From an uncultured Pseudomonadales bacterium (GTDB taxonomy: Bacteria; Patescibacteriota; Microgenomatia; UBA1400; MFAQ01): DNA of 64,000 nucleotides. The DNA lies in assembly GCA_964439805.1 (NCBI GenBank), contig CAYTOI010000001.1, positions 67,573 through 131,572 on the forward strand, in the 5' to 3' direction. Position 1 is the stretch's first letter, and every line of letters begins with the position of its first letter. A program made the position numbers and the translations under genes. A model generated the notes under the pieces. It had not been told where the DNA came from, made no database searches, and was given only the letters and a program-made list of their open reading frames with translations. Below, in pieces: positions 20,675-41,292 of this stretch.

Positions 20675-21043
20675 ATGAATATCTTTAATCTCATCTCAAA
20701 ACCAGTTTATGCAGCCGCTGACGTAGTAGGAACAATCACCCTCCCTGCTGGTGTACCTTCCGAAGTGGTCAAAACCGGTTCATTTTTTAGTGCTATTGTT
20801 CGCTTGATGATGGTAGTTGGAGGTATTTTTACCCTTTGGCAATTTCTTTCTGGAGGTTTTGAATACATCTCTTCAGGTGGAGACAAAACAAAAATCGCCA
20901 ATGCCACCCAAAAACTTACCATGAGTGTCACAGGTTTAGTGGTCATGACGGGAAGTTTTCTGATTATTTCCATTATCAGCAAAGTTCTCTTTGGTAGTTT
21001 TACTGCTATTCTAAATCCATCATTAACACGAGTAACTCCATGA
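20675..21043 (+). CDS. TrbC/VirB2-like T4SS pilin family protein (array member 2)
   Basis: SSGGDKTKIANATQKLTMSVTGL between two TM helices. Confidence 0.65.
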   Translation: MNIFNLISKPVYAAADVVGTITLPAGVPSEVVKTGSFFSAIVRLMMVVGGIFTLWQFLSGGFEYISSGGDKTKIANATQKLTMSVTGLVVMTGSFLIISIISKVLFGSFTAILNPSLTRVTP

Positions 21044-21456
21044 TTAACTTCATTAGCGGTTTTATTGTCAAGTCTGCTTATGCAATTACTGAGCCAGATA
21101 GTCCGTATATGACATCAGATGGCTCTACAAGTCTTGGGGCCATTACAGGAACTGGTCAATTCCAAAATATTCTAGGAGGACCAGAAACATTACTTGGCAA
21201 ATTCCTTTCCACCCTAATAACCACAATGACCATCTTTGGATCTCTCGCTTTTGTAGTTTATTTCAGTCTAGGAGCTCTTACCTGGATCACCGCTGGCGGA
21301 GACAAAGCAAAAATTGGATCAGCTCAAAGCCAAATGACTCAAGGGGCTGTTGGTTTAATTGCCATAGTCGCCTCTTATTTCATCATTGGCATAGTTGGCA
21401 ATGTCTTAGGACTAAATATTCTCAATCCTATTAAAATGTTAAATTTAATTAACTAA
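21040..21456 (+). CDS. TrbC/VirB2-like T4SS pilin family protein (array member 3)
   Basis: TAGGDKAKIGSAQSQMTQGAVGL. 4-nt overlap with the upstream gene suggests an operon. Confidence 0.65.
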   Translation: MINFISGFIVKSAYAITEPDSPYMTSDGSTSLGAITGTGQFQNILGGPETLLGKFLSTLITTMTIFGSLAFVVYFSLGALTWITAGGDKAKIGSAQSQMTQGAVGLIAIVASYFIIGIVGNVLGLNILNPIKMLNLIN

Positions 21457-21457
21457 A

Positions 21458-21778
21458 ATGGACGAAATTGTAAACAACGCGATTCCTGCAACTGCCTTAT
21501 CCAAAGGTTATGGTGGAGGTCTTGCTTTTTATATCGCCACTCTCTGGAAAACCGTAGTCACAGTTGGAGGTCTCGCTTTTATCATCTACCTCGTCTGGGG
21601 TGGCATAGAGTATCTCACTTCAGGTGGTGACAAAAATAAAATCGCCGACGCCACAACAAAAATAACCAGCTCTGTTATAGGTGTAGCTATACTCGTAGCC
21701 TCTTATGCCATCACCCTCTTCATCCAAGGTGTCTTCAAAATTAATATCCTTAACCCCATCTTTCCTAATAATCTATGA
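21458..21778 (+). CDS. TrbC/VirB2-like T4SS pilin family protein (array member 4)
   Basis: TSGGDKNKIADATTKITSSVIGV. Confidence 0.65.
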   Translation: MDEIVNNAIPATALSKGYGGGLAFYIATLWKTVVTVGGLAFIIYLVWGGIEYLTSGGDKNKIADATTKITSSVIGVAILVASYAITLFIQGVFKINILNPIFPNNL

Positions 21779-22095
21779 ACAACACTAGTGTAAACATTGG
21801 CGCAGAAACAGCTGGTTTTTTTGGCTACACTTGTATTGGTCACCTAGTCAGCAATCTCGTCGCTGCAGCCTTTATCATTGCAGGAGTTGCCTTTTTTGTT
21901 TATTTGGTTTGGGGCGGAATTCAATATCTCACCTCCGGAGGAGACAAAACTGGTACTGGAGATGCTCAAAAAAAGATTGCCGCTGCTTTTATCGGCCTCA
22001 CCATTGTTGCTTCCAGTTGGGCTGTTTATCAGCTAGTTATCTACTTCTTTGGAATCAACTTGAACAGTTTGTGCACAGCTAACCCAGTCGGTTAA
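21775..22095 (+). CDS. TrbC/VirB2-like T4SS pilin family protein (array member 5)
   Basis: TSGGDKTGTGDAQKKIAAAFIGL. Confidence 0.65.
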   Translation: MNNTSVNIGAETAGFFGYTCIGHLVSNLVAAAFIIAGVAFFVYLVWGGIQYLTSGGDKTGTGDAQKKIAAAFIGLTIVASSWAVYQLVIYFFGINLNSLCTANPVG

Positions 22096-22145
22096 AATGT
22101 AATATAATATAGATATAGCAATTATTAATTTATAAACACAAAAAT

Positions 22146-22490
22146 ATGTCCCTAATCCCCCAAGTCTACGCTGCTGCAAGTGGAACCATAGGTATTCCTC
22201 AACCATCAGGTATGAAAATCACCGATATTGGTGTCCTTATTTCTAGAACCATTTCTGTCGTCTTTATTATCGCTGGTATTATGACCTTTGGATACTTAGT
22301 TATGGGTGGTATCACCTGGCTCACCGCCGGTGGAGACAAAGCCAATACCGAAAAAGCCAGAGCTATCATCACCAATGCTGTCATCGGTCTTGCCATTATC
22401 GCCGCTTCCTGGGCTCTAATGAAACTCATCTCCTACTTCCTTGGAGTTGACGTCTTCGAAGGCAATATCAATATCCCCAAGCCTTACTAG
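22146..22490 (+). CDS. TrbC/VirB2-like T4SS pilin family protein (array member 6)
   Basis: TAGGDKANTEKARAIITNAVIGL. Confidence 0.65.
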   Translation: MSLIPQVYAAASGTIGIPQPSGMKITDIGVLISRTISVVFIIAGIMTFGYLVMGGITWLTAGGDKANTEKARAIITNAVIGLAIIAASWALMKLISYFLGVDVFEGNINIPKPY

Positions 22491-22525
22491 TCATTGCAAA
22501 CCGCCCATGGCGGTGTGGCAATCCA

Positions 22526-22557
22526 GTAAAAAATCCTCCGAATGGAGGATTTTTTAT
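22526..22557 (+). terminator. Rho-independent terminator after pilin array member 6
   Basis: aaatcctcc-gaa-tggaggatt hairpin followed by TTTTT. Confidence 0.6.
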
Positions 22558-22629
22558 ACAAACAAACTCACCATCTTGAGTTTTTGAGTTCTTGAGTTTT
22601 TGAGTTCTATATTATTGTAAAATAAAACC

Positions 22630-22986
22630 ATGTCTTTCAATTTTATTCCTCAAGCACACGCAGCCGGTTTTACAGCAGGTGATCAATGGCAAGGTGCCGG
22701 ATGTGCTCAAGATGGAGTCGCCACCATAGGCGGAATTCAGTGTCTAATTGGTAATGTTTTAGTTATCATTCCTTCAATGTTAGTATTGGCCGCTGTGGGA
22801 ATGATTATCTTTGCTGGTATAAAAATAATTAATGCTGGGGCAGACACAAAAGCTTACGCAGCAGGCTGGAATACTTTTTACTACGCCGCCATCGGTTTGG
22901 TACTTCTTTCTGTCGTTTGGTTTGTAATAGTCTTAATCCAAAACTACACCGGAACAAACATTACCGAATTTGGAATTCCAAATTAA
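22630..22986 (+). CDS. TrbC/VirB2-like T4SS pilin family protein (array member 7, divergent)
   Basis: Two TM helices with NAGADTKAYAAGWNTFYYAAIGL, a degenerate form of the motif. Confidence 0.55.
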   Translation: MSFNFIPQAHAAGFTAGDQWQGAGCAQDGVATIGGIQCLIGNVLVIIPSMLVLAAVGMIIFAGIKIINAGADTKAYAAGWNTFYYAAIGLVLLSVVWFVIVLIQNYTGTNITEFGIPN

Positions 22987-26693: not shown

Positions 26694-28421
26694 ATGCAGT
26701 ATTTCCGCAAACACCTAGCCCTCATTTTTTCTTTGTCTTTTTTCCTGTTCTCCTTCCTCACCCTCCTCCCCACCCCCTCCCATGCAGAAATTGACGCAGC
26801 AAGTATCGCAACCTGGATGACAAACTTTCCAAAAGATAATCCTTGGGCTCTAGCAAAAGAATTTTGCGACAAACGCAATGGAGATCTTATGAACCTTGAA
26901 ACTTGGTATTCGGGAAAATGTGGAAAAGATATAAATTCAAAAAGCGGTGAAGGAGTTGGCTTTGTAGATATTGTTATATTACAAGGTTATGAGTGGTTGT
27001 TTAGACCTCAAACAAAATCATTACCAGAACAAATGATAGACAATTTAAAAGACCTAGAAACAATTAGGGAAAAAATTACATATCAGAATTATAAGGAAAA
27101 ACTTGCAGAATTAGCCTTGAAACAATCAAAAAACAAGGATATTATTTCAAGCTTAGAACAGGCTACAAAAAATGTAATTACCACCCAGCCAGTTAGCAGT
27201 GTGGACTACCTTGCATATGTTGGTAACAACTTAAAGAAAAACCATGTTGTTGATTCAGCTTATGCAGCAACTCCAGGTTATGGTTTTGGCGGATTAGCAC
27301 CAATTCTCCCCATTTGGAAAGCCTTCAGAAACATTGCTTATATGCTTTTCGCAATAGCTTTTGTAATGTACGGAGTAATGATTATGTTTCGAATTCGAGT
27401 GGATGGTAAAACAGCAGCCACAATAACATTGGCAATACCAAAGTTAATTACAACCCTTTTATTAATAACTTTCTCTTATGCCATTGTGGGCTTATTGGTA
27501 GATTTATCTACTGTTGCAAGTGCATTACTTATTGATGTCTTAAGGGTTGGAAAAATAATAAAAGACCCAATAGAAGGTGTTGTAAGGGGTTCAAGCGGAC
27601 TTGGGAGCTGGGGAATGATAGGATCTTTTTTAATAAATACGCTATCTTCCATAATAATTTCTCCCTTTATTGTTTTTAATCTATTACTTGGAGGTTTTTT
27701 TAGTGCTACTTGGGCTTGGGTTGGTATAGTTTTAAGTCTAGCTACGGGTATTGGAGAAGCAATAGCAATTATACTTGTGATTGCAGTTATCTGGTCTTAT
27801 ATAAAATTAATTCTTAAACTCTTTCAGTCATACTTATCAATAATTGTAAGTTTGGTCTTTAGTCCAATAATTCTTCTTGGAAATGTAATGCCAGGATCAA
27901 AGGCGTTCTCTGGCTGGATAATGGGAATATTAGGCAACCTTTCAACTTTTCCCGCAGCAGCCTTTTTGCTCACCCTATCATATGCTCTTATGATGCAACC
28001 GGTAGTCAATGCCTTCCCCAATGCTAATTTGGGTGTTGTATCATTGGCCCCATCAGGAGGAAATGGTTGGACAACAGCTGCTGGTACTGGTACAAACATG
28101 TGGGCACCCCAAATAGTAGTACCTCAAGGAGGTGGACTGGGTGATTTAATGCTAGCCACCATAGGTATTGGCCTTCTTCTCATGTCTAGTAAATATGTTG
28201 ATATGGTACTTAAAGCGTTCAACACCCCACCATTCCCCTATGGAGCTGCAATAGGCGACGCGCTTAAATATGGATACTCTCAAGCCAGTGATCCAAACAG
28301 TTCTTACAGAACATCTAAATTTGGAAATCGTGCAAATGCTGTAACTGAGGGACTTTACAATATAGGCCCAAAAAGGCTAACTGGAAACACAATTTGGCAG
28401 GACACAAAAGGCATGTTCTAA
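26694..28421 (+). CDS. VirB6/TrbL-like polytopic membrane protein (putative)
   Basis: 575 aa: signal peptide, ~200-aa extracytoplasmic domain, then at least six TM helices and a Gly-rich C-terminus. This architecture and its position in the T4SS-like locus fit the VirB6 family. No sequence motif is diagnostic. Confidence 0.45.
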   Translation: MQYFRKHLALIFSLSFFLFSFLTLLPTPSHAEIDAASIATWMTNFPKDNPWALAKEFCDKRNGDLMNLETWYSGKCGKDINSKSGEGVGFVDIVILQGYEWLFRPQTKSLPEQMIDNLKDLETIREKITYQNYKEKLAELALKQSKNKDIISSLEQATKNVITTQPVSSVDYLAYVGNNLKKNHVVDSAYAATPGYGFGGLAPILPIWKAFRNIAYMLFAIAFVMYGVMIMFRIRVDGKTAATITLAIPKLITTLLLITFSYAIVGLLVDLSTVASALLIDVLRVGKIIKDPIEGVVRGSSGLGSWGMIGSFLINTLSSIIISPFIVFNLLLGGFFSATWAWVGIVLSLATGIGEAIAIILVIAVIWSYIKLILKLFQSYLSIIVSLVFSPIILLGNVMPGSKAFSGWIMGILGNLSTFPAAAFLLTLSYALMMQPVVNAFPNANLGVVSLAPSGGNGWTTAAGTGTNMWAPQIVVPQGGGLGDLMLATIGIGLLLMSSKYVDMVLKAFNTPPFPYGAAIGDALKYGYSQASDPNSSYRTSKFGNRANAVTEGLYNIGPKRLTGNTIWQDTKGMF

Positions 28422-28535
28422 TTCTCAAAATAACACAATTTTAGAATTCTTTTTTTGGTAAATTAAATTTATACTAAGAAAGATATTTTTCAGTCTAAAA
28501 CAACAAAAATTAGCACACGATACATCAAATACCGA

Positions 28536-30800
28536 CTATGCCCAAGGAACCCATTTATTAATCCAATCTGTTATCTTTGTTGAGTCATTTATTCTATCCA
28601 TTTTGCTAAACTTATCAGCATCCACTTTTCTATTTGTATAAAAATTACCTCTTTTCTTAGTAAAGAATTTTTTCATTTCTTTATAATTATCAAAAATTCC
28701 CTTACCATCAAACTTTCCTTCTGGACTAAAAAATGTTTTAGATATAGATGCCACGAGAGCGTCTTCTCCTTCACCATCATTCAAAAAGTATTGAACACAG
28801 TTTTCCAATCTTTGCTGATAATACCCCTTACCCTTATCAGGAGTAAAATTTAAATAAGCATAACCAGGAATTACCTTAGTTACAAAATTGTCGAAGGTTG
28901 GATTAAGGAAAAATTCACTTTCAGCCTTTTTAGCTTCTGAATACCCTTTCAGTGTTCCAAACCATCCTAAGAAATTTTCACTACCATCAGTCATTTTTCC
29001 TAAAATTAGTCTTTCTATAATACTTTCTGTTAAAGGAATCGACTCGTTAATCTCTTTGGCTTTTCTACCTCCAATATTTTCATCGTCCCTTAATTTGTTC
29101 CAAAAAGGTACCACACCTAAATTAACTCCACCAACAAGTCTTTTATCCGTATCATAACTAACCAATGCTTTATTAAAATTTAGAATTCCTCTCAAAAATA
29201 AACCTTTTGTAGTAGCTGACAAGCCACTTCTATCTTTAGGGAAAACTTCCATTGGATATCCATATTGAGCGTCAACTCCAGTAATTCTACAAACATCTCT
29301 TCCCATTTTTATAAATAAGTTAGCTTCCTCGTCAGTTACAAACTCATGACGTACTCGTCGAAATACCTCATCGTGAAGATCTTTACTGTCTATATCAATT
29401 TCTTTTTTTGTATCTCGATAGGTCTCTCTCATTACCGTGTCATATAGTTCCATTACCTTAGGAACAATCAATGTTCTTCCTTTCCTTATACTCAACATTG
29501 ACACCAACGCCCCATCTATGCTTTGTAGTAGTTCGGCCCGAGCACTTTCTGGTTTGTAAGTAGGGTTATCCATCATAACTGTGATGTCGTGGACCTTTAT
29601 CATTTGTCTTATCAAATCAGCTTTAGGTTCTTTATCAATTTTGGAATTTATATTCAACCCAATATTATCTGTACTCAAATACGGCTCTTTTAATATTTTT
29701 ACAACAACCCCATAATCACTTTTATCTTCAACTATCTCAGTTTTATTAAATTTATTGATTAAGAATTTTTCTAAATTTTCTTTCATTATTTCCCCATCGG
29801 CTCCGTACTCAAACCATCTTCTCTTTTCATCATAAAATATTTTTGCCACAAATTCTGTCAATCTACCTTCAAACTTATTTCTTGAATCTTGATTAACAAC
29901 TTTACTTATTTTTTCTTGTCGTTTAATACTTTCAGAATTACCAGCAATTTTTACGTAGTTACCATCGTTAAGAATTTCCTTCAGATAAACATCTTGGGCT
30001 ACTGAAAACATGTCCTCATATACAGTTGTGTCTCCCGCTCGGAATCTTTCCATTAAACGATCCTTGTGCATACTTTTTGACAATTCTACCAATCTAGCTA
30101 GTTTTGGCTTGTCTGGGTGTAAGGAAAGAAGAGGATCCCATTCTTGTAGTAAATATTTATTCAAAGATACTTCATTTTCTTTAACATAATCACCTACAGT
30201 TTCTCTATTCCTTCCAGCTTCAGGACTTGGTTCTTCGGGTGGTCTTGGCTCAGCAGGGTCTCTTGGTTCGGGCGGAACTTCTCTACTTCTATCAGCCTCG
30301 GCTTTTTTCTTCTTGTTTTCTTCTTGAACCTTTAAAACGTCAATGTTCATTTCGTTTAACAGTTTTTCAGCATCCTGTTTTGTCATTCTGTTTCCAATTT
30401 TTTCCTCATCTACTTCATCAAAAACAAGCCTTACAGCATCAACAACTTTCTTTTTTGATTCTCTGTCTAAGATAAGATCTACAGCAATTTCATTATCTTT
30501 CAATTTTTTTTGCGCAGACAGAATAAGGAGTCTGTCATTATTAATATCTTCCTCTGATCTTTTAACTTTATTCTCTGCTTTAGGGTCCACATAAACCTTG
30601 AGAGATCTTGTAGCTTCTCTCAAGTCTTGTCTTAAATCTGGATACCATGATTCTCCCAACAATTCCACATCCAGTATTTCAACATCTACTGTGTTTTTTG
30701 TCCCGTCGTCCACAGGCCTTAAAGGAGGCTTCACCAAAACAACACCTTTTTCAGATGATACTGGTTTGTCATTAAATACCCAATCGTTTTCTCCCGACAT
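28536..30800 (-). CDS. Large acidic hypothetical protein (no TM, no recognisable domain)
   Basis: 754 aa intact ORF, Lys/Glu/Asp-rich, with an internal Pro/Glu low-complexity linker (PPEPRDPAEPRPPEEPSPE). Second gene of a two-gene minus-strand operon. Confidence 0.6.
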   Translation of the reverse strand: MSGENDWVFNDKPVSSEKGVVLVKPPLRPVDDGTKNTVDVEILDVELLGESWYPDLRQDLREATRSLKVYVDPKAENKVKRSEEDINNDRLLILSAQKKLKDNEIAVDLILDRESKKKVVDAVRLVFDEVDEEKIGNRMTKQDAEKLLNEMNIDVLKVQEENKKKKAEADRSREVPPEPRDPAEPRPPEEPSPEAGRNRETVGDYVKENEVSLNKYLLQEWDPLLSLHPDKPKLARLVELSKSMHKDRLMERFRAGDTTVYEDMFSVAQDVYLKEILNDGNYVKIAGNSESIKRQEKISKVVNQDSRNKFEGRLTEFVAKIFYDEKRRWFEYGADGEIMKENLEKFLINKFNKTEIVEDKSDYGVVVKILKEPYLSTDNIGLNINSKIDKEPKADLIRQMIKVHDITVMMDNPTYKPESARAELLQSIDGALVSMLSIRKGRTLIVPKVMELYDTVMRETYRDTKKEIDIDSKDLHDEVFRRVRHEFVTDEEANLFIKMGRDVCRITGVDAQYGYPMEVFPKDRSGLSATTKGLFLRGILNFNKALVSYDTDKRLVGGVNLGVVPFWNKLRDDENIGGRKAKEINESIPLTESIIERLILGKMTDGSENFLGWFGTLKGYSEAKKAESEFFLNPTFDNFVTKVIPGYAYLNFTPDKGKGYYQQRLENCVQYFLNDGEGEDALVASISKTFFSPEGKFDGKGIFDNYKEMKKFFTKKRGNFYTNRKVDADKFSKMDRINDSTKITDWINKWVPWA

Positions 30801-30810
30801 ATTATTTCAA

Positions 30811-33800
30811 TTATATCATTTTTAAGCCTAGAATCTGGAAAAACTTAATGGTATTCGCCCACTGATTAGGATAATTCTTCCTGAGCTCCACATCGTCAAC
30901 AAGTCTACCGGCTAGGCACAAATCTGACAACATCTTGTCGGCTTTATCTGGACTTTCTTCATTTATTACCCTTTCTAAATATGAATACCCCGCATCAACC
31001 ATATCTCTGACTAGTCTCATTTGATCCACTCTAGAAAAGGTGTCTTTTCCTCTTAGCTTTTCAAGCCTACCTAACTCCTGAAGCTGTCTAACAACAAAAT
31101 CCCTTTTATTGTTTTCTCTTTCATTTTTTTTATCTTTAACTTCAACAAACCCAAAATAACCCATTATTTTTTGCTTTGCTAAATCAACTGTAAAATTTTC
31201 ATCCGGTTTATTACTTTTTACAACCGTAATTGCACTCAATAAACTTTTCTGAATCCCATCACTTTCAGACTTGGCTATTTTGGACAAATCAATCCCCCTC
31301 TTAATTAATTTTTCTCTAGCTTCATAGTATTCCTTGTTTCTGTTTATACCTGAAGTACCAGCTTCCAATTCATCAAACAGCTTTTGATCCCAAACCTTCT
31401 CCTCCTCCACCTTTTCTTTAATTACTACTTTGACTTTATTTTCAACAGACTCTTTATTGATTTCAACAACCTCTGGTTGATTATCCAAATTTTCTCCATG
31501 CATTATTTTCCTGGCTTTCGCCAAGTACTCAACTTTTATATTAGATTTTTCTAAAGTCGGTAAAATTTTAGACCATTTTTCAATAAAATCTTTTTCATTC
31601 ACATCTTCGTTGTTTAGCAAAAAATAATTTTCAATCCTAAATATCAACATATCTAATTCGTTTGAAGTATCCCGACGATCTCCTTTTTTCCATAATATTT
31701 TCACCCCAAAAGACTCAAGTCTGTCCAGTGCTTCTTTGTATTCAGATTTTTCATTTTCACTGTAAACAACCCGTAGATCTTTCAGCAAACCATCCTTGTA
31801 ATAATTTACTACTTCAACATTATTTTTTTCAAATTCTTTTACAACTCTCCCCTCTTTTGTATTTTTCACCACACTTTCAACCACATCACGAATCTCAAGT
31901 ATTTTTTTTATAAAATTTTCTGCATTTTCTCTCTTTTTACCCCAAGCAACAAAATTATTTTCCTTGATTGCTTTTAGTGCCAATTTATAAGATTCATAAT
32001 CAACACCATCCTTGTCAAATTTTGGCAAGTTAATTCCATGACTACTAATTCTTTCTACAGCACTTTGAACATCTTCAATATTTCCATTTTCCACCAACCA
32101 CAAATCATTATACAAACCTTCGTAACTCTCAGGCTTATCTACCATCTCAACATTTTTAGGAATATTTTTTAATTCCAAAATACCACCATGTCTATATTTT
32201 CTAGCATTTTCTATTCTAGAAAAATCACTTATGCCATTTTTTGTTAACAAATATTCCAAATCATCTATTTTTTCAAAATTACCATCAGATTTCAAATACG
32301 AATCTAGTAAATCAACCAGCTCTTTACCTAACAAGTAATCTGTTATTTTGGATTTATCATCTACGGATCTATCCTTTTCAATCTTACCTACTTTAAATTT
32401 CCCCAATCTTTCAAACGAATCTTTTTTATTTTTTTTAAGTATTTCTAAGGATGTCTCATCACCACCTACTTCCGACGGTCTTGTGTATATTGTTTTTAAG
32501 TCAGATATTAGTCCATCAATCTTGGCAAAATAAGCATATTCTTGTTCCAGTTTTTTAGGCACAAATTCTCTTATCAGTACCTCCTGAGGAAGGGAGTCGC
32601 TTTTATCTTTCTGTGAAGAATTTGAATCCAAATTTTTAATTTCTTCACTTTCCAACACAATACCTTTACTAATAAGATAATCACTCAAAGAAAAACCAAA
32701 ATTCCCGTCAAAGGGCTTACTTTCTAATCTTGACACCAATCTATCAGATACAAACATCCTAACTGCTTTCCCCTTAATAACTGTTTTATCTTTAAAAGCT
32801 TCCTCTATAGGCATTCCTTGATTTTCTTTTTTCAAAAAATCATACAAAGAGGTTGGATTTTCAGCCACAACTTCCATAAAATCAAAGACAAAACTTTTAT
32901 CAATCACAAAAAACGAACCTATTTTACCAACCTTCTTAGAGTCCGTATTATCAACTACTAAGTTCGTAATGTTTACAACTACTTTGTTAGCAAAGTCCAA
33001 ATCTTTCTCTTTTAGATACTTCTCAACATCATTACTTAATATAGAAATTCTTTCACCTTCACGAATTGGAGGCTGAATGACAAATTTTTCAAAAGTATCT
33101 ATCCTCACACAAGAATAATTCTCTTCATCCAAAAAGGATTTTTCTTTGTTTATTTTTGCCTTACTTTCATGTCGCTGATTCAGTTCTCTGATTACTTCAA
33201 AAAAAGAATTATTTTTATCAAATTCATTATTCAAATCTACATTTAAAACGCTATCGTAAACAACAACTTCAATATTTCTTTTTTCTTTTTTTTCATCCTC
33301 TTCATCAACAATTTCGACCTCCAGCATTTTTTCAACTACCAAACTTTCTTGTTCCATTTTCTTCAGGTTATCCCCCAAGAATGTTTTTAACTCATCACTC
33401 ATTGTCGACACATCAAATTTATCGGCTTGAGAATCTAGTTCATCAATCAACATTCTTACTTTTTCCACGATTAATCCACTTAAATCTTTTGAATAAATTA
33501 AATTTCCTTTCTGATCTATATACATCTTTACCCCCAAAAGGTTCAAATTAAAACCATTATTAATTAACGGATCAAGATCAAAAGATGTCGGTTCTTTTAA
33601 AAATATTTCCAAAGAATCCTTCAAATCTTCAGCTTCAAATTCCATAGGTTCAACATCTTCTGACAAAACAACCTCAAACTCATTCTCTTGCTCATTAATT
33701 TTATTGTCTTTTAAAAATTTTTCAAAACCTTCTTCAGATTGCACTTGATTCAAAACTAAAAGTTCTTTCCAGTTCGGAACCTCGTCATCCTCACCATCAG

Positions 33801-33921
33801 CGCCATTTGCAAAAGCATCAGATTCATGTAAATCTTCATCCGACGTGCTTTTACCTCGAATTGTTTTTTTTTCAGTTTTCTTTTTTTTGTAATCCCAATC
33901 TTTTTCTACTTCAACAGCCAT
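30811..33921 (-). CDS. Giant acidic hypothetical protein (no TM, no recognisable domain)
   Basis: 1036 aa intact ORF. 10-nt spacing to the downstream gene suggests an operon. Highly charged and probably cytoplasmic. Confidence 0.6.
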   Translation of the reverse strand: MAVEVEKDWDYKKKKTEKKTIRGKSTSDEDLHESDAFANGADGEDDEVPNWKELLVLNQVQSEEGFEKFLKDNKINEQENEFEVVLSEDVEPMEFEAEDLKDSLEIFLKEPTSFDLDPLINNGFNLNLLGVKMYIDQKGNLIYSKDLSGLIVEKVRMLIDELDSQADKFDVSTMSDELKTFLGDNLKKMEQESLVVEKMLEVEIVDEEDEKKEKRNIEVVVYDSVLNVDLNNEFDKNNSFFEVIRELNQRHESKAKINKEKSFLDEENYSCVRIDTFEKFVIQPPIREGERISILSNDVEKYLKEKDLDFANKVVVNITNLVVDNTDSKKVGKIGSFFVIDKSFVFDFMEVVAENPTSLYDFLKKENQGMPIEEAFKDKTVIKGKAVRMFVSDRLVSRLESKPFDGNFGFSLSDYLISKGIVLESEEIKNLDSNSSQKDKSDSLPQEVLIREFVPKKLEQEYAYFAKIDGLISDLKTIYTRPSEVGGDETSLEILKKNKKDSFERLGKFKVGKIEKDRSVDDKSKITDYLLGKELVDLLDSYLKSDGNFEKIDDLEYLLTKNGISDFSRIENARKYRHGGILELKNIPKNVEMVDKPESYEGLYNDLWLVENGNIEDVQSAVERISSHGINLPKFDKDGVDYESYKLALKAIKENNFVAWGKKRENAENFIKKILEIRDVVESVVKNTKEGRVVKEFEKNNVEVVNYYKDGLLKDLRVVYSENEKSEYKEALDRLESFGVKILWKKGDRRDTSNELDMLIFRIENYFLLNNEDVNEKDFIEKWSKILPTLEKSNIKVEYLAKARKIMHGENLDNQPEVVEINKESVENKVKVVIKEKVEEEKVWDQKLFDELEAGTSGINRNKEYYEAREKLIKRGIDLSKIAKSESDGIQKSLLSAITVVKSNKPDENFTVDLAKQKIMGYFGFVEVKDKKNERENNKRDFVVRQLQELGRLEKLRGKDTFSRVDQMRLVRDMVDAGYSYLERVINEESPDKADKMLSDLCLAGRLVDDVELRKNYPNQWANTIKFFQILGLKMI

Positions 33922-33988
33922 ACCTCCATCTTATCTCAAAAAACCAAATCTTTCCTTAAACACGATATACTAATACATAGCTAATCTT

Positions 33989-34066
33989 CGTCATTGCGAA
34001 TCACGAAGTGCTTAAGCAACCCCCGACTCGGAGATTGCCACGTCGTTTCACTCCTCGCAATGACGC
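33989..34066. promoter_or_regulatory. 78-nt palindrome in the divergent intergenic region (two inverted copies of the GTCATTGCGA..GGCAATC repeat)
   Basis: gtcattgcga at 33990-33999 and tcgcaatgac at 34056-34065 flank two inverted repeat-family-3 copies. Lies between divergent genes 30811..33921 (-) and 34077.. (+). Confidence 0.5.
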
Positions 34067-34076
34067 AATCTAAAAT

Positions 34077-35033
34077 ATGGCCATCCAACAACACCCAGTA
34101 CCCCAAGACATCAGTAACTACCGATTCCGGCTAATCGGCGACATGACTATTAAACAATTCTCCTCTTTGGGAATTTGTATAGTTCTCACGGTCATTATTT
34201 ACAGCTCCCCTCTACCTTTTTTCTTCAAATATCCTCTCTCCTTTGCCTTTTTGGCTCTTGGAGTAGGCATGGCTTTTATTCCTGTGCAAGGTAGAACTTT
34301 AGATGTTTGGATCCTTGCTTTCTTTAAATCTATCTACGCCCCCACTCAATATATTTGGAAACACGGCCAAGATGTTAATAATAACCCGATTACAACTACT
34401 ACAACACCAGTAACAGAACCAGTAAACACTCCATCCACACCTGTAGTCCCAGTTTCCACTCCTACAGCCGAACCAATTCCTGAGCAAACTCCACAACCAG
34501 AAGAGATGGCGAAATCAGCACAACAACCAGTACCCACTGTGGAACCAGTTGCAGAAACAGTAGTAGTACCAGAATCTAAAAATATAGAGATACCCGCCAC
34601 CGAAGTCACTCCAGTAGAAACAAAAACTGAAACACCTATATACACCCCAACAGACAATAACTCGACTCAATCAAGTCCAATTCCAGCTTCTGAACCAACT
34701 ATAAACAACACTCCAGTCCCCAATAATCCTATTAACAACGAAGTATCCAGTCTTCCCATTCCTTTTACCCCATCCACGCCAAACACTTTAGTGGGACTAA
34801 CCCTTACTCCAGATGAAAAAATTCTAGATGGTGTACTTATTGAAATAAAAAGCCAAAACCTCACTCTCCGAGCCACCAAAAGTAACAAGCTTGGCCAGTT
34901 CCTTTTTGCTCGCCCACTAGAAAACGGCCTCTTCCAAATTCTTGCTGAAAAAGATGGCTATAGCTTTGAAGCTTACAGTATCAATCTCACCGGAGAAATT
35001 GTTAAACCTTTAAAAATCCAAGCAATCAAATAA
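34077..35033 (+). CDS. PrgI/VirB3-like membrane protein with Thr/Pro-rich C-terminal extension (putative)
   Basis: The N-terminal ~100 aa have two TM helices (FSSLGICIVLTVIIY..LSFAFLALGVGMAFI) like PrgI/TcpE/VirB3-type proteins. The rest is Thr/Pro/Glu-rich low-complexity sequence. Confidence 0.4.
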   Translation: MAIQQHPVPQDISNYRFRLIGDMTIKQFSSLGICIVLTVIIYSSPLPFFFKYPLSFAFLALGVGMAFIPVQGRTLDVWILAFFKSIYAPTQYIWKHGQDVNNNPITTTTTPVTEPVNTPSTPVVPVSTPTAEPIPEQTPQPEEMAKSAQQPVPTVEPVAETVVVPESKNIEIPATEVTPVETKTETPIYTPTDNNSTQSSPIPASEPTINNTPVPNNPINNEVSSLPIPFTPSTPNTLVGLTLTPDEKILDGVLIEIKSQNLTLRATKSNKLGQFLFARPLENGLFQILAEKDGYSFEAYSINLTGEIVKPLKIQAIK

Positions 35034-35034
35034 T

Positions 35035-35694
35035 ATGCCAGCCGAAGTAATAAAAGCCTCCACCCAAGAACATCTCGATATTTACACTATCAAAAATCAT
35101 CTAGTCTTTCTCAAAGATGGTTCCTGCTCCCTCGTTCTCAAAACCACAGCTCTAAACTTCAACCTTCTCTCCGAAGAAGAACAAGACGCCACTATCTACA
35201 CTTATGCCGGACTTCTTAACTCTCTCTCCTTTTCTATTCAAATTCTCATTCGTTCTCAGCGTAAAAATATTTCCGACTACATCACGCTTCTCGACAACAG
35301 TATTCAAGGAACCTCTTCACAAAAAGTAAAGGAGTCTCTCCTTTCTTATCGTCAGTTTGTTAAGTCTCTCGTCAAGGAAAACAGAGTCTTAGAAAAAAAA
35401 TTCTTCGTAATTATTACTTTTTCAGCTATTGAGCTTGGTATTACCAAGTCCACTTTCAACCCCTTCAGTAAAGATCCTCAAAAACCTCCATATGACCTGG
35501 ACTACATAGAAGAAAAAGCTTCCATGGTACTCTACCCACGAAGAGATCACATTATTCGTCAATTTGCTCGTATCGGACTAAAAACCAGTCAACTTACCAC
35601 CACCGAACTTGTAACTCTTTTCTACTCTATCTACAACCAAAGCAGTTCTAGTCCTCTAATTTCCGATCAAATAACTTTCAACGAGCACCAATAA
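35035..35694 (+). CDS. Hypothetical protein, T4SS-locus associated
   Basis: 219 aa soluble ORF immediately upstream of the VirB4-like ATPase. Confidence 0.5.
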   Translation: MPAEVIKASTQEHLDIYTIKNHLVFLKDGSCSLVLKTTALNFNLLSEEEQDATIYTYAGLLNSLSFSIQILIRSQRKNISDYITLLDNSIQGTSSQKVKESLLSYRQFVKSLVKENRVLEKKFFVIITFSAIELGITKSTFNPFSKDPQKPPYDLDYIEEKASMVLYPRRDHIIRQFARIGLKTSQLTTTELVTLFYSIYNQSSSSPLISDQITFNEHQ

Positions 35695-35720
35695 AAGTTC
35701 TCTTCGGTTATACTTAATAC

Positions 35721-37631
35721 ATGGCTTTTAATTTATTTAATCTTGGCCAAAAACGCAGCACAGCAGTGCTAAGTCCCGACTCACAGTCGGGAGCCACAAC
35801 TTCTATTCCAGAGGTTTCATCTTCCATATCTGATACCTCCACTCCTCCAATCAAAACCATAGACAAAAACATTGCTCCTCAAGACAACAACATCCAAGAC
35901 ACCATTGCCCCATCTGCCATAGAAGTCGATTTTTCTTTTATAAAAATCGATGATACATATGTCCGCACTCTCTTTGTCACTGGCTATCCTCGCTACGTCA
36001 CTGCTAACTGGCTGTCTCCACTGATTAACTTCAACCACTCTCTAGATGTCTCCATGTTTATTTATCCTAGTGACTCCAAAGATACACTCGAAAGTCTCAG
36101 AAGAAGAATTGCCGAAATGGAAGCAGAAATAAATACAGATATCCAAAGAGGTCGTGTCCCCAGAGCCGCAACTGAGGCCGGTCTAGAAGATGCCAAAGCA
36201 CTTCAGTCTCAACTAGTAAAAGGTGCTGAAAGATTTTTTCAATTCTCTTTGTACCTTAGTATCTCTGCTGAAACAGAAAAAGACCTGAACACCACCACTT
36301 CACAAGTTCAATCCATGCTTGCTTCTCTCCTAATCATCAGCAAAACCGCTTCTCTCACCATGGAAGACGCATTCAAAAGTACCCTTCCCTACGCCAAAGA
36401 CAGATTAATGATTACGAGAAATATGGACACCACTTCATTGTCCACCACTTTTCCATTTACAAGTTCCGAACTCTCTGACAACAAAGGAATTCTCTATGGA
36501 CTTAACGCCCACAACGACTCTCTCGTAATTTTTGACCGCTTTTCTTTAGAAAACGCCAACATGCTTATCCTTGCTACTTCTGGTGCTGGAAAAAGTTACA
36601 CTGTAAAACTCGAAATTCTCAGATCTCTTATGTTTGACACTCGTGTCATTATTCTAGACCCAGAAAATGAGTATGAAATGGTTACCAAGTCAGTTGGCGG
36701 TAACTATATTTCCTTCTCCATCAACTCCCCTCACAAAATAAATCCTTTTCAAATAGCCAAACCCCAAGAAAGTAGTGAAGACGAAATGGGATACAAATAT
36801 CTATTTCTCATGTCTCTTCTCAAAATTATGATTGGTGAAATGAATCCAATAGAAGAAGCCACCATGAACCGTGCCCTTGTTCTCACCTATCGCCAAAAAG
36901 GAATTACCGAAGACCCTGCCACCCACGTTCTCGAAGCCCCAAGAATGGAAGACCTTTACCGTTCCCTTATAGGTATGGAAGAAGCGGTAAGCAAAACTCT
37001 ATCCGCCCGTCTTGAACGTTTCGTCATGGGTTCTATTAAAGGAATCTTTGACCAGCAAAGTAATATAGATATCGACGCTCCTATTACTGTTTTCTCGATG
37101 CGAGATATAGCCGACGAAATTCGTCCCATTGTCATGTTTAACATTTTAGATTTTGTCTGGACTCAGGTAAGAAAAGATCTTCGCAAAAGGATGTTGGTAG
37201 TTGACGAGGCTTGGTATTTGATGCGCTACGAAGATTCCGCAAAGATTCTCCAAGGTTTTGTAAAAAGAGCCCGCAAGTATTATCTTGGTGTCTCCATTAT
37301 TTCTCAAAATGTTGACGACTTCTTGGGTTCTCCGTATGGAAAGGCAATTATCACAAACTCCGCTCTCAAAATGCTACTCAAGCAGTCTCCTGCGGCTATC
37401 AATCAAATTGCCGAAGTCTTTTATCTTTCTCAAGGAGAAAAGCAACTACTTCTTTCCGCTGGTGTCGGTGAAGGAATCTTTTTTGCCGGTATGAACCACG
37501 TAGCTATACGCATAATCGCTTCTCCAGACGAACATGCCCTCGCTAGTACCAAACCAGCCGAAGTCCTCGCCCGTCAAAAAGCTGCTGCCGACCAAAAGCT
37601 CGCCGAAGAAAAAACTCAACCTAGTATCTAG
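35721..37631 (+). CDS. VirB4/TrbE/PrgJ-family conjugative type IV secretion ATPase
   Basis: Walker A LILATSGAGKSYTVK, Walker B RMLVVDEAWYLM, and an N-terminal region with the TGYPR-type motif (FVTGYPRYV) typical of VirB4-family proteins. Confidence 0.85.
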   Translation: MAFNLFNLGQKRSTAVLSPDSQSGATTSIPEVSSSISDTSTPPIKTIDKNIAPQDNNIQDTIAPSAIEVDFSFIKIDDTYVRTLFVTGYPRYVTANWLSPLINFNHSLDVSMFIYPSDSKDTLESLRRRIAEMEAEINTDIQRGRVPRAATEAGLEDAKALQSQLVKGAERFFQFSLYLSISAETEKDLNTTTSQVQSMLASLLIISKTASLTMEDAFKSTLPYAKDRLMITRNMDTTSLSTTFPFTSSELSDNKGILYGLNAHNDSLVIFDRFSLENANMLILATSGAGKSYTVKLEILRSLMFDTRVIILDPENEYEMVTKSVGGNYISFSINSPHKINPFQIAKPQESSEDEMGYKYLFLMSLLKIMIGEMNPIEEATMNRALVLTYRQKGITEDPATHVLEAPRMEDLYRSLIGMEEAVSKTLSARLERFVMGSIKGIFDQQSNIDIDAPITVFSMRDIADEIRPIVMFNILDFVWTQVRKDLRKRMLVVDEAWYLMRYEDSAKILQGFVKRARKYYLGVSIISQNVDDFLGSPYGKAIITNSALKMLLKQSPAAINQIAEVFYLSQGEKQLLLSAGVGEGIFFAGMNHVAIRIIASPDEHALASTKPAEVLARQKAAADQKLAEEKTQPSI

Positions 37632-37633
37632 AC

Positions 37634-40240
37634 ATGTCCGACCAAAGCCTAAATATATTTTCCCTGGAAACAGCAAAGAGTTTGCTGGCAGGCAAAGTAG
37701 ATCTTCAAGTTCTCAAACCAGCAGAAATATCGTTTATTTCCAAAGCCCACAACCTTTTCTTAAATTATTTTTCAGCTATCCATCCTAGTGCCACAATCGA
37801 TCCTCTTTATGAAGACTTTAATTATTTTGTAGAACATAGAGATCTCGGAGAAATACAGGCAATAATTAATTTTTTATCCAGACCTCAAGAAGGAGAAAAA
37901 CAAGAACAAACAAGAGAAGTAAAAAAAGAAGATATTTCTATTCCTGTAGAACTAGAGGCAATGGTTGCCATGTACAAGCAGCACCAAGCTGACCTTGTAG
38001 ACAACGAAAGACCAAACTCCCTAGCTGAAAATATCAAAAGGGCTCAAAAAACCATCAACGAAAGAAGAAAATACGATCTTATTTATGAAAACGCGAGCAA
38101 AGAAAGGCAAAAGGAATTAGATAGACAGAAGGAAATATCTGATCGACTCTACTCTCAAATAGTAAATCCCAAAAAATCAAGATCAGAATTAACTCAAAAT
38201 ACTCGCAACCTTGCATCCTTTCTCGTTCTTTCTCAAAGTGAAAATAAATTAAACCAATCACAATACGACGAAGCTGTTAAACAAATAGTCAATATTGCTG
38301 AGACTGGTGGTCTGGATGTAACAGATGAAAAATCACTTTATGACATTAGTTATTCCATAGTAAATAGCTTCACCAATGAAAATAAAGAATTAGAGGAATT
38401 AAATGTATTAGTCCAAAAACAACTAAAGGCAGAAGCATTAGGGTTAGACACTGATGAGTACAACAAAAAAATAGACTCTTTAGCTGAGTTTGTAGAAGAT
38501 AAAGAGAACAAAAAAGACAAAAAAGATGATAAATCAAATAGAGACATATTTTCAGAAAAATTATCAGTCAAAAAGACAAACCAAGACAAATCTATACCCG
38601 ACCCAGATGTACTCATAGGAGAATCGCAAAAAGAGATTAATAATATCACTCAAAAACTAAGTAAAAGATTCCCAAGTGCCAAAAACCCATACCAAGAAAC
38701 TGACTTTTTAGCTCAAAATGCCAAAGCAATCGAAAAGGCCATATTAGCCACTGACAGAACTGCCCTTAGCCCTATTCCTGTAGGCTTAGGTGCCAGAACA
38801 TCAGCCACGCTCAAAGAAACTGGAAGTAATGCTCTCAACCCTGTAGTTGTTGACTTGTACAGTAGAGGGTTAACTCCAGAAAAATACAAAAAACTAACAG
38901 AAGACAAAAACTCACCTTTTAATCAATTACTTAACAAACAACCTGAATTAAGAAAAAGAATCGAAAATGGGATAAGGGTTGTCAGTAATTCGCCAGACGG
39001 AAAAACTATTGCAGAACAATTAAAACCAGTTTCTAGGTTAGAGTCTTACCTCCCTACTAGTATCCAAAAGGCTCTTCACCCAGTAAAAACTATAGAGGCA
39101 GCAGTAAACAAACGTATTGGTGAATATGGAGGAAAGGTGTTGAACAAAACGTTCGGAAAAGCTCTTGGAGGAAAACTAGAGAAATACATCCTCAAAGACG
39201 GAATTCAAGTAGGTGCCAAAAAATTAATAGATAAGGCTGCTGTAAAAGTAATCACTGCTGGAGCTGAAAAAATTGGTTTAAAAGTAGTCGGAACCGCAGC
39301 CACCAAAACTGCTCTTGCCGCCGCTGCAACGGCATTGGGTATATCCACTGCAGGTTTGAGTTTAATTCTGACAGCTGCTTGGTTTGTTGTTTCAGAAGGG
39401 TTTAAAAAAATTAAATCTGTCTTTCAAGATACTTTTGGTGTCACCGATAAAGACATCAAAGATTTTGCAGTTGGCGCAGGTATAGGTTTGGTCGGAATGT
39501 ATTATGGAGCCAGAACTGGTGTAAAAGTATTTGCCGTCGCCACCAAAGCAGCTGTCATTTCCGCCGCCGGCATTATCTGGCTTTCCATAGCCACTGTTGC
39601 AGTTTTCTTAACTCTCACTTTCCTCGTTGCTCCCATTCTCTCTACCTTAGTACAGTTCGATTCTGTCGAGAAAGTCCAGTACGGAACAGTTGCAGAAGAT
39701 CAAACAGCCAGCTGCAAAGGTAAGGAATTAAAAAACGATAAGAAAAAATGTAATGGAAAGTATTGTTTTCCTGTTGGAGATACCGGTACCGTTTCATACC
39801 TCACTTACCATCATGACTACCCAGCTAATGACATTATGCGCATCGGAGACAAGCCAGGAAACAGTGATGACGTTCCACTCCCCTTACTAGCATACACAAG
39901 CGGTTACGTTTTGAATGCAACCGAAGACCCTGTGGGAGGATTAAGTATTTTAATTGCAGGTGATGATGGTAGATTTTACTATTACGCTCACAACATGTGT
40001 AACACAATAAAATCTGGAAACAGAGTAGAGGCGGGAACTATCATTGGGGGTATGGATACTTCAGGTAATGCAAATGGATACTTGGAACATCTACACTTTC
40101 ATATAAGTACAAAACCCGACATGAGAACTATCCCAGAAAACTACCCAAACTTTATTTGGCCATACGAAGATTTTTGTAACAAAGTTAATATTTGTGGATC
40201 TCTTAACCCAGAGGTTTACCCTGAACTACCATACCTATGA
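37634..40240 (+). CDS. T4SS-associated cell-wall hydrolase: coiled-coil / TM / C-terminal M23 (LytM) peptidase domain
   Basis: 868 aa. The C-terminus (YYYAHNMC..GNANGYLEHLHFHIS) matches M23 peptidase Zn-binding motifs. A central hydrophobic block has 3-4 TMs and the N-terminal half is predicted coiled coil. Confidence 0.7.
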   Translation: MSDQSLNIFSLETAKSLLAGKVDLQVLKPAEISFISKAHNLFLNYFSAIHPSATIDPLYEDFNYFVEHRDLGEIQAIINFLSRPQEGEKQEQTREVKKEDISIPVELEAMVAMYKQHQADLVDNERPNSLAENIKRAQKTINERRKYDLIYENASKERQKELDRQKEISDRLYSQIVNPKKSRSELTQNTRNLASFLVLSQSENKLNQSQYDEAVKQIVNIAETGGLDVTDEKSLYDISYSIVNSFTNENKELEELNVLVQKQLKAEALGLDTDEYNKKIDSLAEFVEDKENKKDKKDDKSNRDIFSEKLSVKKTNQDKSIPDPDVLIGESQKEINNITQKLSKRFPSAKNPYQETDFLAQNAKAIEKAILATDRTALSPIPVGLGARTSATLKETGSNALNPVVVDLYSRGLTPEKYKKLTEDKNSPFNQLLNKQPELRKRIENGIRVVSNSPDGKTIAEQLKPVSRLESYLPTSIQKALHPVKTIEAAVNKRIGEYGGKVLNKTFGKALGGKLEKYILKDGIQVGAKKLIDKAAVKVITAGAEKIGLKVVGTAATKTALAAAATALGISTAGLSLILTAAWFVVSEGFKKIKSVFQDTFGVTDKDIKDFAVGAGIGLVGMYYGARTGVKVFAVATKAAVISAAGIIWLSIATVAVFLTLTFLVAPILSTLVQFDSVEKVQYGTVAEDQTASCKGKELKNDKKKCNGKYCFPVGDTGTVSYLTYHHDYPANDIMRIGDKPGNSDDVPLPLLAYTSGYVLNATEDPVGGLSILIAGDDGRFYYYAHNMCNTIKSGNRVEAGTIIGGMDTSGNANGYLEHLHFHISTKPDMRTIPENYPNFIWPYEDFCNKVNICGSLNPEVYPELPYL

Positions 40241-41292
40241 TATTCAAAAAAATAAATAGTAAATATTTCTACATTGGTTCAACGATTCTAATGTTAATTA
40301 TCATTTTTATTTTTAGTACAAAAAATAAAATAATCACAACAAAAAACAACAATACTGAGCCTATCATCCCCACCCAATCAATAAAGAGCTCAAAAGACAT
40401 TGCTTTGTCTGATGTAATACCTGCAGCAAACACCACTCCATTTAACCTAGGAAATTACTCTATAAAAAACAAAAAGCTTATTTTTACCCTACCAGAGGGA
40501 AATGGCTACGAAGTTGATACAAACAGTGAACCTGTATCTGATTTTAAAATCAATGGCAATTCTCTAATCATTACCACTGGTGAAGTTTATTCCACACCAA
40601 GCGCATACTATATTCACGACATCACCACTGCAAATACTTACAAAATGGAAATTAATAAAGTAAAACCAATTGTTGATATAACTGCATTTTCAGATATCAA
40701 AAATGTATATCTGCTGGGAAGCTATAAAAACAAAAACTACACTATGAGTTTGTATTCCAACGACCTGACTACTGGCAAAAACAGTTTAATACTCTCGAAC
40801 ATATCAAGAAATTATTTAAAATCTTTGGATAATGACAACCTAATTCTTGGAAAAGAAATCGACAAATCAGAACCTAATTTTTATTTTGATGTTTATGATG
40901 CCAAAAACACAAAATATCTCAAAAATAATGTTTTGACAGCAAAAAAAACTATATGTTCAAATAATGACTCAGTTTTCTATTTAAATTACAAAGACAATAA
41001 AATAATCCGTTTTAACTACAAAAAGATAGAAGAAAACATCCTAGATATTAATATCGATTCAGGAACACCTCTTACACTTTGCGACGACAATAGACTTACC
41101 ATATTGCAAACAAAAGAAAACAAAATAAAAATTCAAAACGTCTTCCTAAACAAACCTGATCAATCGAATAATAATGAATTCTCCCTAAAAGATAATCAAT
41201 TGTTTATTGAAGCTTTTTTAAACAACGGAACTCTGATATTTAAGTTCTACGACAAAACAGACAGATCTTATACTCTAGTAAAAGAAAACTAA
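40237..41292 (+). CDS. Hypothetical membrane-anchored protein, very AT-rich
   Basis: 351 aa, N-terminal TM, Asn/Lys-rich beta-type repeats. Markedly lower GC than its neighbours. Confidence 0.5.
   Translation: MIFKKINSKYFYIGSTILMLIIIFIFSTKNKIITTKNNNTEPIIPTQSIKSSKDIALSDVIPAANTTPFNLGNYSIKNKKLIFTLPEGNGYEVDTNSEPVSDFKINGNSLIITTGEVYSTPSAYYIHDITTANTYKMEINKVKPIVDITAFSDIKNVYLLGSYKNKNYTMSLYSNDLTTGKNSLILSNISRNYLKSLDNDNLILGKEIDKSEPNFYFDVYDAKNTKYLKNNVLTAKKTICSNNDSVFYLNYKDNKIIRFNYKKIEENILDINIDSGTPLTLCDDNRLTILQTKENKIKIQNVFLNKPDQSNNNEFSLKDNQLFIEAFLNNGTLIFKFYDKTDRSYTLVKEN

Follow-up and report, generated by a model that had tools for sequence, protein, structure and literature searches.

A hypervariable two-gene cassette encoding large soluble proteins occupies a fixed slot in a Patescibacteria-type type IV secretion locus

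[quoted passage not shown] Within the cluster, on the opposite strand, are two adjacent genes, here named A and B, which encode large soluble proteins of new families. Together they form a hypervariable, mosaic two-gene cassette that is locked to the T4SS. Their functional tie to the T4SS is strongly supported, because the same slot is occupied in 12 of 12 related loci and no homologue in another context was found among GTDB species representatives, JGI contigs or, by tblastn, plasmids and phages. We favor the interpretation, at a probability of about 0.4, that A and B are a polymorphic protein cargo or effector pair of the Patescibacteria-type T4SS. The T4SS context is already known, the A and B families are new, and no description of the pair was found in the literature searched.

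The A and B genes and their secretion locus

The window is chromosomal, with tmRNA, tRNAs, dnaG, rpoD, tsaD, leuS, yidC, dnaN and dnaA present. Genes of the T4SS cluster occur in the order pilin array, 1061-aa protein, 189-aa protein, VirB6-like protein, B and A (on the opposite strand), PrgI/VirB3, TrsD, VirB4, M23 peptidase, 351-aa protein, dnaN and dnaA. The stop codon of A and the start codon of B are separated by 10 nt (TAA-TTGAAATAAT-ATG), so that a two-gene operon is structurally plausible. B converges on the VirB6-like gene, a pairing that is kept in every related locus, and no canonical intrinsic terminator was found in the intergenic region between the two gene ends. The 575-aa protein is named VirB6-like by its topology and position only, and has no Pfam match. 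The 1061-aa protein has one transmembrane segment. Also encoded are at least nine VirB2-like pilin paralogs (PF18895), at 17427-18177 and 20292-22986. Pfam and NCBIfam scans detected no coupling protein or relaxase within the 64-kb window.

Both proteins are exceptionally charged. Lysine, arginine, aspartate and glutamate make up 37.1% of the residues of A and 34.7% of those of B, compared to a mean of 24.3 ± 5.9%, and these are the two most highly charged of the 42 open reading frames (ORFs) of the window. A has an isoelectric point (pI) of 4.95, a net charge of −44 and high contents of Lys (12.4%), Glu (11.9%) and Asp (8.8%); the pI of B is 5.60. Neither has a transmembrane segment or signal peptide (maximum 19-residue Kyte-Doolittle hydropathy of 1.33 for A and 0.94 for B), and the N-termini of both are acidic and not signal-like. 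The hydropathy maximum falls under the transmembrane threshold in all 24 proteins of the A and B families.

Sequence searches provided no functional prediction for either protein. Pfam has no match for A, B or six relatives (scattered single-member matches were judged to be noise), and NCBIfam has none for A or B. No PADLOC-DB v2 family was matched (0 at E ≤ 0.1) by A, B, three A-like relatives or P0017, a protein that occupies the B position in one of the related loci (see below). Just two weak matches came from PHROGs, both to families that have no known function; one of them, phrog_35094 at E 0.007, was judged to be noise. Scans of single copies of the repeat module likewise gave no consistent match in these databases. 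Searches of PDB sequences, whether started from single sequences or from profiles of B, of the repeat module and of the A C-terminal domain, returned only coiled-coil or designed-helix noise (at best the ClpC M-domain, E 0.0036, and design constructs, E 0.011). Walker A, HUH and HExxH motifs are not conserved in either family; a Walker A-like match occurs in one of 12 proteins of each family, and in neither A nor B of the window. The H-hydrophobic-H motif was identified in 0 of 24 A and B proteins.

A preliminary description of this DNA had presented A and B as an intact operon lying antisense between the VirB6-like gene and the VirB3-like/VirB4 operon, and their products as extremely charged proteins that lack transmembrane segments, signal peptides and recognizable motifs. 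These statements are borne out by the above results.

Several candidate identities were considered and rejected. A type IV coupling protein (VirD4/TcpA), an FtsK/HerA-type P-loop NTPase anchored by an N-terminal transmembrane segment, is ruled out by the lack of a conserved Walker A motif, transmembrane segment and Pfam or NCBIfam match. A conjugative relaxase (MOB) was rejected, given that HUH is absent and there is no Pfam, NCBIfam or PDB sequence match. VirB6 and extended VirB6, which have a polytopic membrane core of at least five transmembrane helices, are ruled out by the absence of a transmembrane segment; the VirB6-like role falls to the neighboring 575-aa protein. An ORF artefact was rejected on grounds of length, of conservation and of the confidently predicted fold.

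Distribution and synteny

An exhaustive HMMER search of 1.84 billion proteins with the B profile recovered 16 representatives of the B family. Two cassette loci were found among 185,579 GTDB species-representative genomes and one in JGI metagenome contigs. In a word search of 5.8 billion proteins, A found only itself among the matches listed and B found two relatives; a profile of 13 sequences gave the same two. Relatives of A are recognizable solely via their repeat modules and C-terminal domain. Two GTDB-representative metagenome-assembled genomes that carry the cassette (L004 and L005) are titled "uncultured Pseudomonadales bacterium" despite a Patescibacteria-type T4SS, probably as a result of a submission labelling artefact.

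Each of the 12 related loci has the same arrangement, with an A-like gene directly before the gene in the B position and the convergent VirB6-like gene after it. This slot is kept even where B identity is just 13–25%. Where the contig is long enough, genes for PrgI, TrsD and VirB4 are found upstream in divergent orientation; downstream are a ~186-aa gene, a ~1000-aa gene and a pilin array. Only L015/L016 departs from this pattern: a VirB4-family gene is situated past the pilin array there, and the gene next upstream of the A-like gene is truncated. One locus (L007) copies the entire layout of the window, from dnaN to polyprenyl synthase. The preliminary description had pointed to synteny beside VirB4 in related genomes as informative; the pair proved to be in the same slot throughout, neither absent nor pseudogenised in the relatives examined, and the above searches found no homologue of assigned function elsewhere.

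Divergence and mosaicism

Identities reported here are relative to the window or pairwise among loci. The values for VirB4 (80–91%) and TrsD (82–92%) are the highest, followed by those for flanking housekeeping proteins (53–75%; DnaN 53%, polyprenyl synthase 66–71%, UppS 75%). PrgI, the VirB6-like protein and the 1061-aa protein are 44–71% identical (44–67% for the VirB6-like protein alone), and the best matches of the pilins range from 26 to 88%. B is 13–58% identical in global alignments (21–71% within its conserved domain), and A aligns at 29–36% over just 8–21% of its length. No other gene of the locus is as poorly conserved as B and A, which fall below both the machine components and the housekeeping flanks. 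The divergence of B correlates weakly with that of the VirB6-like protein (Spearman rho 0.31); between L005 and L012, for example, the VirB6-like proteins share 67% identity and the B proteins 20%.

Also observed was conservation of VirB4 and TrsD (window 35035-37631, compared with L004, L005, L007, L010, L014 and L015) in excess of that of the flanking housekeeping proteins. Such a pattern would imply that the ATPases of the T4SS are under unusually strong constraint, or else that the segment was recently exchanged.

The proteins are mosaic as well as divergent. The proteins in the A position are between 275 and 1036 aa long, carry 0–4 module copies and have unrelated N-terminal regions. The B-position protein of L007, P0017 (10001-12850; also present in L008 and L009), combines the N-terminal module of the family with an unrelated body of ~750 aa that is not a diverged B domain and has no Pfam match. 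It could represent another type of payload for the B slot.

The region upstream of the A-like gene, on the side of the PrgI operon, is an insertion hot spot in relatives (Table 1). In L017, HepT/MNT toxin-antitoxin pairs are placed between the VirB6-like gene and the remaining cluster.

A and B might themselves be an unrelated conflict system (anti-phage, toxin/antitoxin-like or a selfish cassette) that entered a hot spot of the T4SS locus and was inherited with it. BrnT/CopG (L002), AbiEii (L011) and AAA_14-DUF4143 (L005 and L017) occur in the same gap, with HepT/MNT nearby in L017. The low GC content at third codon positions of both genes (0.26, versus 0.35 ± 0.05 in the window) could reflect such an origin, and defence genes are often hypervariable, as are A and B. 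Still, we consider this unlikely. Six family members have no PADLOC match, there is no nuclease, ATPase or protease motif, and no homologue of A or B is present in the plasmids or phages searched. Defence cassettes change contexts, whereas the A/B pair was found only in the T4SS slot; similarly, the toxin-antitoxin and ATPase insertions are sporadic, whereas the pair is constant. The constancy of the slot at B identities down to 13–25% implies long vertical co-inheritance with the T4SS.

Domain architecture of A and B

The preliminary description had termed both proteins domain-less, but this is true only with respect to databases: A is composed of repeats and a C-terminal domain, B has an all-alpha domain of ~520 aa, and the two share a module (Table 1).

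A begins with an orphan region of ~600 aa, which is followed by three copies of a ~82-aa module and a C-terminal domain of ~93 aa. Residues 1–599 show no similarity to other A-position proteins by BLASTP, tblastn or hidden Markov model (HMM) comparison (hhalign probability < 1%). The module consensus is W(Y/D)xxhxxDLxxxT ... AxxRLxxxG(I/V)xh ... A ... G ... AxxxI/LK, and shuffled controls reach a maximum of 7.8–10 bits with the module HMM. The C-terminal domain HMM identifies exactly one ORF per locus, at 65–99 bits, and the match is always C-terminal; the domain is kept in 12 of 12 A-position proteins.

B consists of an N-terminal helical module, a Pro/Glu-rich linker, the conserved all-alpha domain and a basic/aromatic tail. 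The N-terminal module HMM scores 138–186 bits in the window, L005, L006, L007 and L010. Comparison with hhalign indicates that the first half of the A module is related to this B module (probability 87%, E 4e-6), and therefore A and B share a building block.

Nine residues of the B domain are invariant across 13 members (Y374, D429, D502, T507, L555, W613, E627, P634 and R664), and the domain includes the motifs RRWFEYG, MGRDxCRxTGxDAQYG, VPFWNK and FDGKGIF. D510, the Asp within TGxDA, is nearly invariant. The clustering in motifs of the polar residues Y374, D429, D502, T507, E627 and R664 would fit an active or binding site. AlphaFold2, supplied with the 13-sequence alignment, predicts an all-alpha structure for the domain with a predicted local distance difference test (pLDDT) of 84.2 and a predicted template modelling score (pTM) of 0.64; the prediction for B from a 3-sequence alignment was unusable (pLDDT 47.5). 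Foldseek searches with the domain model returned only alpha-solenoid noise from the PDB (best E 0.73, TM-score 0.15) and BFVD (best E 0.42). The modelled domain apparently represents a new all-alpha fold.

The invariant tyrosine and acidic residues of B would be compatible with a cryptic DNA-processing function in conjugation, with A and B as a divergent relaxase, primase or DNA-binding pair that replaces the missing relaxosome. The system descends from monoderm conjugation machinery, is without a recognizable relaxase, and published work leaves open "very different relaxases yet to be found" (PMC12102498). We nevertheless judge this function to be highly improbable. A and B lack HUH, a conserved His, Walker A and Toprim-like motifs, and are acidic to neutral, not basic. 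The all-alpha fold of B has no PDB match to relaxases, primases or recombinases. There is no locus-specific oriT-like feature, as the palindrome upstream of A is a dispersed repeat (see below), and hypervariability is atypical for relaxases.

Cargo or scaffold

We favor a role as cargo for several reasons: because A and B, which are soluble and have no signal peptide, are encoded within a secretion locus; because they are less conserved than all machine components and housekeeping neighbors; because they combine small conserved elements with exchangeable large bodies, as do known T4SS substrates; and because for this type of T4SS no substrate is known and neither a coupling protein nor a relaxase is encoded near virB4. 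A weaker line of evidence is that, despite overall acidity, 23 of 24 A and B proteins (including 12 of 12 B-position proteins) carry a net positive charge over their final 25 residues, where the mean charge of such windows is −0.6; the percentile per protein is only 0.13–0.28.

We infer the following route. A and B, lacking Sec signals, would be synthesized in the cytoplasm. The conserved cytoplasmic face of VirB4/TrsD/PrgI would recognize the ~82-aa modules, the A C-terminal domain (LG(L/V)xxV) and the basic C-terminal tails, and the proteins would be exported via the VirB6-like/pilin apparatus towards a host cell. There, the orphan N-terminal 600 aa of A and the all-alpha domain of B, which may be enzymatic, would act.

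A more far-reaching version, which we put forward tentatively, is that A and B are the first identifiable protein substrates of the Patescibacteria T4SS, in which a nearby coupling protein is lacking. They would be polymorphic effectors whose ~82-aa module and ~93-aa C-terminal domain form a new recognition signal that is read directly by VirB4/TrsD, and the all-alpha domain of B would serve as a new payload, enzymatic or host-binding, and contribute to setting host range in epibiotic ultra-small bacteria.

Several observations weigh against the cargo interpretation. The essential T4SS cluster of the cultivated Saccharibacterium Southlakia lacks the A/B pair, so the pair is not a universal cargo; given that it is confined to a narrow uncultivated clade, it cannot be the answer for Patescibacteria in general. 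In each protein the positive charge at the C-terminus is a weak signal (percentiles 0.13–0.28), and the tail of B might just as well be a helix that targets the membrane. Charged, low-complexity helical proteins can diverge fast merely through low constraint. No small immunity-like gene adjoins the pair, and no further carriers of the module or of the A C-terminal domain were found in 259 kb (the window plus the related loci). Finally, there is no adjacent coupling protein, the usual substrate receptor, so that the recognition route itself would be new.

Alternatively, A and/or B could be a cytoplasmic adaptor, a substrate receptor, or an assembly or regulatory scaffold at the VirB4/TrsD/PrgI/VirB6 base. 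They would perhaps replace the missing coupling protein, or correspond to detached hydrophilic helical domains of an "extended" VirB6, and the basic/aromatic C-terminal helix of B would anchor it to the inner membrane face. Strict co-location with T4SS genes is consistent with such a role, as are the solubility and all-helical character of both proteins and the absence of a type IV coupling protein gene nearby. The docking-like module and A C-terminal domain could bind the highly conserved ATPases. In Southlakia the two VirB6-like proteins are ~1000 aa long, with ARM-like hydrophilic domains, compared to 575 aa here (PMC12857230). B tails resemble amphipathic membrane-targeting helices, although their amphipathicity is modest (median p 0.13) and not statistically distinctive. 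However, a partner of ATPases that are 80–92% identical is expected to be conserved, whereas A and B are the least conserved proteins of the locus. The B body can be swapped (L007) and the length of A varies four-fold. Furthermore, A and B are in a separate operon on the opposite strand, have no Walker A or other NTPase motif and show no similarity to T4SS component profiles in Pfam or NCBIfam. We regard the scaffold role as tentative, and prefer cargo or effector because of the hypervariability and mosaic architecture. The preliminary description had listed a secreted substrate or effector, a scaffold and an inserted system as options; the tie to the T4SS is now strongly supported, and the first option is tentatively preferred.

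With this pair there are concrete candidates for the cargo of the T4SS, or else for its missing layer of substrate recognition. Defined conserved elements that might bind VirB4/TrsD are the module, the C-terminal domain of A and the N-terminal module of B. Two protein families are newly defined as well, together with an all-alpha fold that is apparently new.

Intergenic repeats and other features of the window

The region between A and the PrgI-like gene contains a palindrome that the preliminary description had assigned to a divergent promoter. The arms are real (33989-33999 and 34055-34065; 11 nt, 100% complementary), but the element is a hairpin that is dispersed in the window and is at best a putative promoter or operator; a locus-specific operator was rejected on that account. 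The 11-mer core occurs five times in the window, compared to 0.27 expected. The hairpin could be a REP/MITE-like element (repetitive extragenic palindromic or miniature inverted-repeat transposable element) or a shared regulatory site.

Within the T4SS cluster, the pilin array is split, with two PF18895 genes parted from the other ~seven by uppS and a polyprenyl synthase gene. An ORF of 138 aa within the array (21040-21456) has no Pfam match. The last gene of the VirB4 operon encodes a 351-aa protein (40237-41292) without a match; its GC content is very low (0.29) and no homologue was detected in related loci. Elsewhere in the window, a 638-aa protein (12844-14760) is without a match and a 910-aa protein (48096-50828) matches DUF4012 only.

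Tandem arrays of 8-nt repeats (CTTGAGTT / CTTGATTC; 3–5 copies, ~40–60 nt) are present at 3676, 10797, 19179, 20057, 22567, 47299, 47879, 51913, 52422 and 54693. Most adjoin gene starts or ends, and some are apparently within the leuS (51626-53728) and tsaD (54056-55117) ORFs. Octamers of a second family (TCTGAGAT / TCTGACAT) are located at 17367, 44182 and 54356.

A tRNA cluster at 7715-9847 contains five tRNA-Ser and one tRNA-Arg. For one tRNA-Ser (9524-9613), the presence of which as a tRNA is supported by Rfam, ARAGORN gave the anticodon ACT, an unusual one in bacteria. The tRNA/tmRNA region is flanked by a direct repeat of 113 nt (6623-6735 and 12033-12145, 91% identical and 5.4 kb apart), and a 57-nt repeat (11818-11874 and 11968-12024) includes the 3' end of the tmRNA, duplicated 150 nt downstream. 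These repeats may be an integration scar.

Table 1. Features of the A/B cassette, its surroundings and insertions in related loci. Positions are those of the window unless a locus is named.
Feature	Position	Strand	Details
Gene A	30811..33921	-	1036 aa, ATG start; intact ORF; fastest-evolving gene of the locus
A orphan region, acidic N-terminus	32125..33921	-	residues 1-599; lineage-specific
A module copy 1	31888..32124	-	residues 600-678; HMM 68-77 bits
A module copy 2	31564..31800	-	residues 708-786; HMM 48-74 bits
A module copy 3	31141..31395	-	residues 843-927; HMM 65-92 bits
A C-terminal domain	30814..31095	-	residues ~943-1036; ends ...W...LG(L/V)xx(V/I); sole part of A common to all A-position proteins
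Gene B	28536..30800	-	754 aa, ATG start; intact ORF
B N-terminal helical module	30285..30662	-	residues ~47-172; WYPxLxxDLxxAT ... A..KL...I.V ... MTxxxAxxxLxxMxIDV
B Pro/Glu-rich linker	30216..30284	-	residues ~173-195 (...EVPPEPRDPAEPRPPEEPSPEAG...); variable, gapped in family alignment; pLDDT < 50
B conserved all-alpha domain	28647..30215	-	residues 196-718, ~520 aa
B C-terminal tail	28539..28646	-	residues 719-754; basic/aromatic; pLDDT < 50
VirB6-like polytopic protein	26694..28421	+	575 aa; six or seven hydrophobic segments; convergent with B
Convergent intergenic region, VirB6-like/B	28422..28535	.	between gene ends
Divergent intergenic region, A/PrgI-like	33922..34076	.	two inverted copies of the hairpin element; RNA fold dG -26.2 kcal/mol, z -3.2
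PrgI/VirB3-like, TrsD-like and VirB4 operon	34077..37631	+	divergent from A
PrgI/VirB3-like gene	34077-35033	+	Pfam/NCBIfam
TrsD-like gene	35035-35694	+	Pfam/NCBIfam
VirB4, CD1110 family	35721-37631	+	Pfam/NCBIfam
Dispersed hairpin element	19143-19180; 33989-34026; 34028-34065 (-); 59726-59763; 63802-63839		~38 nt; CGTCATTGCGA ... GCAATC(TC)
Hot-spot insert, BrnT/CopG	L002 567-1137		
Hot-spot insert, AbiEii	L011 553-1227		
Hot-spot insert, AAA_14-DUF4143 ATPase	L005 6059-7219		
Inserts in L017	L017 1254-2396 and 9338-10735		AAA_14-DUF4143 ATPase; HepT/MNT toxin-antitoxin pairs

Comparison with known systems

The Xanthomonadales effectors known as X-Tfes are soluble, T4SS-linked proteins without a Sec signal that have a variable N-terminal region and a C-terminal XVIPCD, and the XVIPCD binds the VirD4 coupling protein. 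A is similar in having a variable N-terminus and a C-terminal domain of ~100 aa that is common to all family members. Unlike the X-Tfes, which are many and dispersed, there is one pair per locus here. There is no sequence relationship (Pfam has no XVIPCD match for A, B or six relatives), no VirD4 or other type IV coupling protein was found in the 64-kb window, and no small immunity gene is adjacent.

The Bep effectors of Bartonella have BID domains plus a positively charged tail. Compared with these, A and B show no detectable homology, the module of B is N-terminal and the charge signal is weak. The likeness, drawn from sequence alone, is in a helical module of ~80–140 aa that a protein has once or several times, a C-terminal tail of net positive charge and otherwise variable domains.

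Extended VirB6 proteins (in Rickettsiales, and SEML1_0011/0013 of Southlakia), compared here by description, resemble A and B in having large, variable, alpha-helical soluble regions at the VirB6 position. A and B differ in that they have no transmembrane segments and are encoded by separate genes on the opposite strand.

Chromosomal T4SS of Patescibacteria have been described as MPF_FATA-like (Quinonero-Coronel et al., 2025; PMC12102498), and that of Southlakia is encoded by SEML1_0006-0019 (Wang et al., 2023; PMC10633639). In the sole genetically tractable species the T4SS is essential for epibiotic growth (PMC10633639). These systems have no relaxase or coupling protein near virB4, and their substrates are unknown (PMC12102498, PMC10633639, PMC12857230). 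A divergent large soluble pair between PrgI and VirB6 is described in neither PMC12102498 nor PMC10633639, and is absent from the Southlakia cluster; in this respect the window differs. It is otherwise alike: no relaxase or coupling protein was found near the window cluster, which encodes at least nine PF18895 pilins, PrgI/VirB3, TrsD, a CD1110-type VirB4 and a downstream M23 hydrolase, and adjoins dnaN/dnaA.

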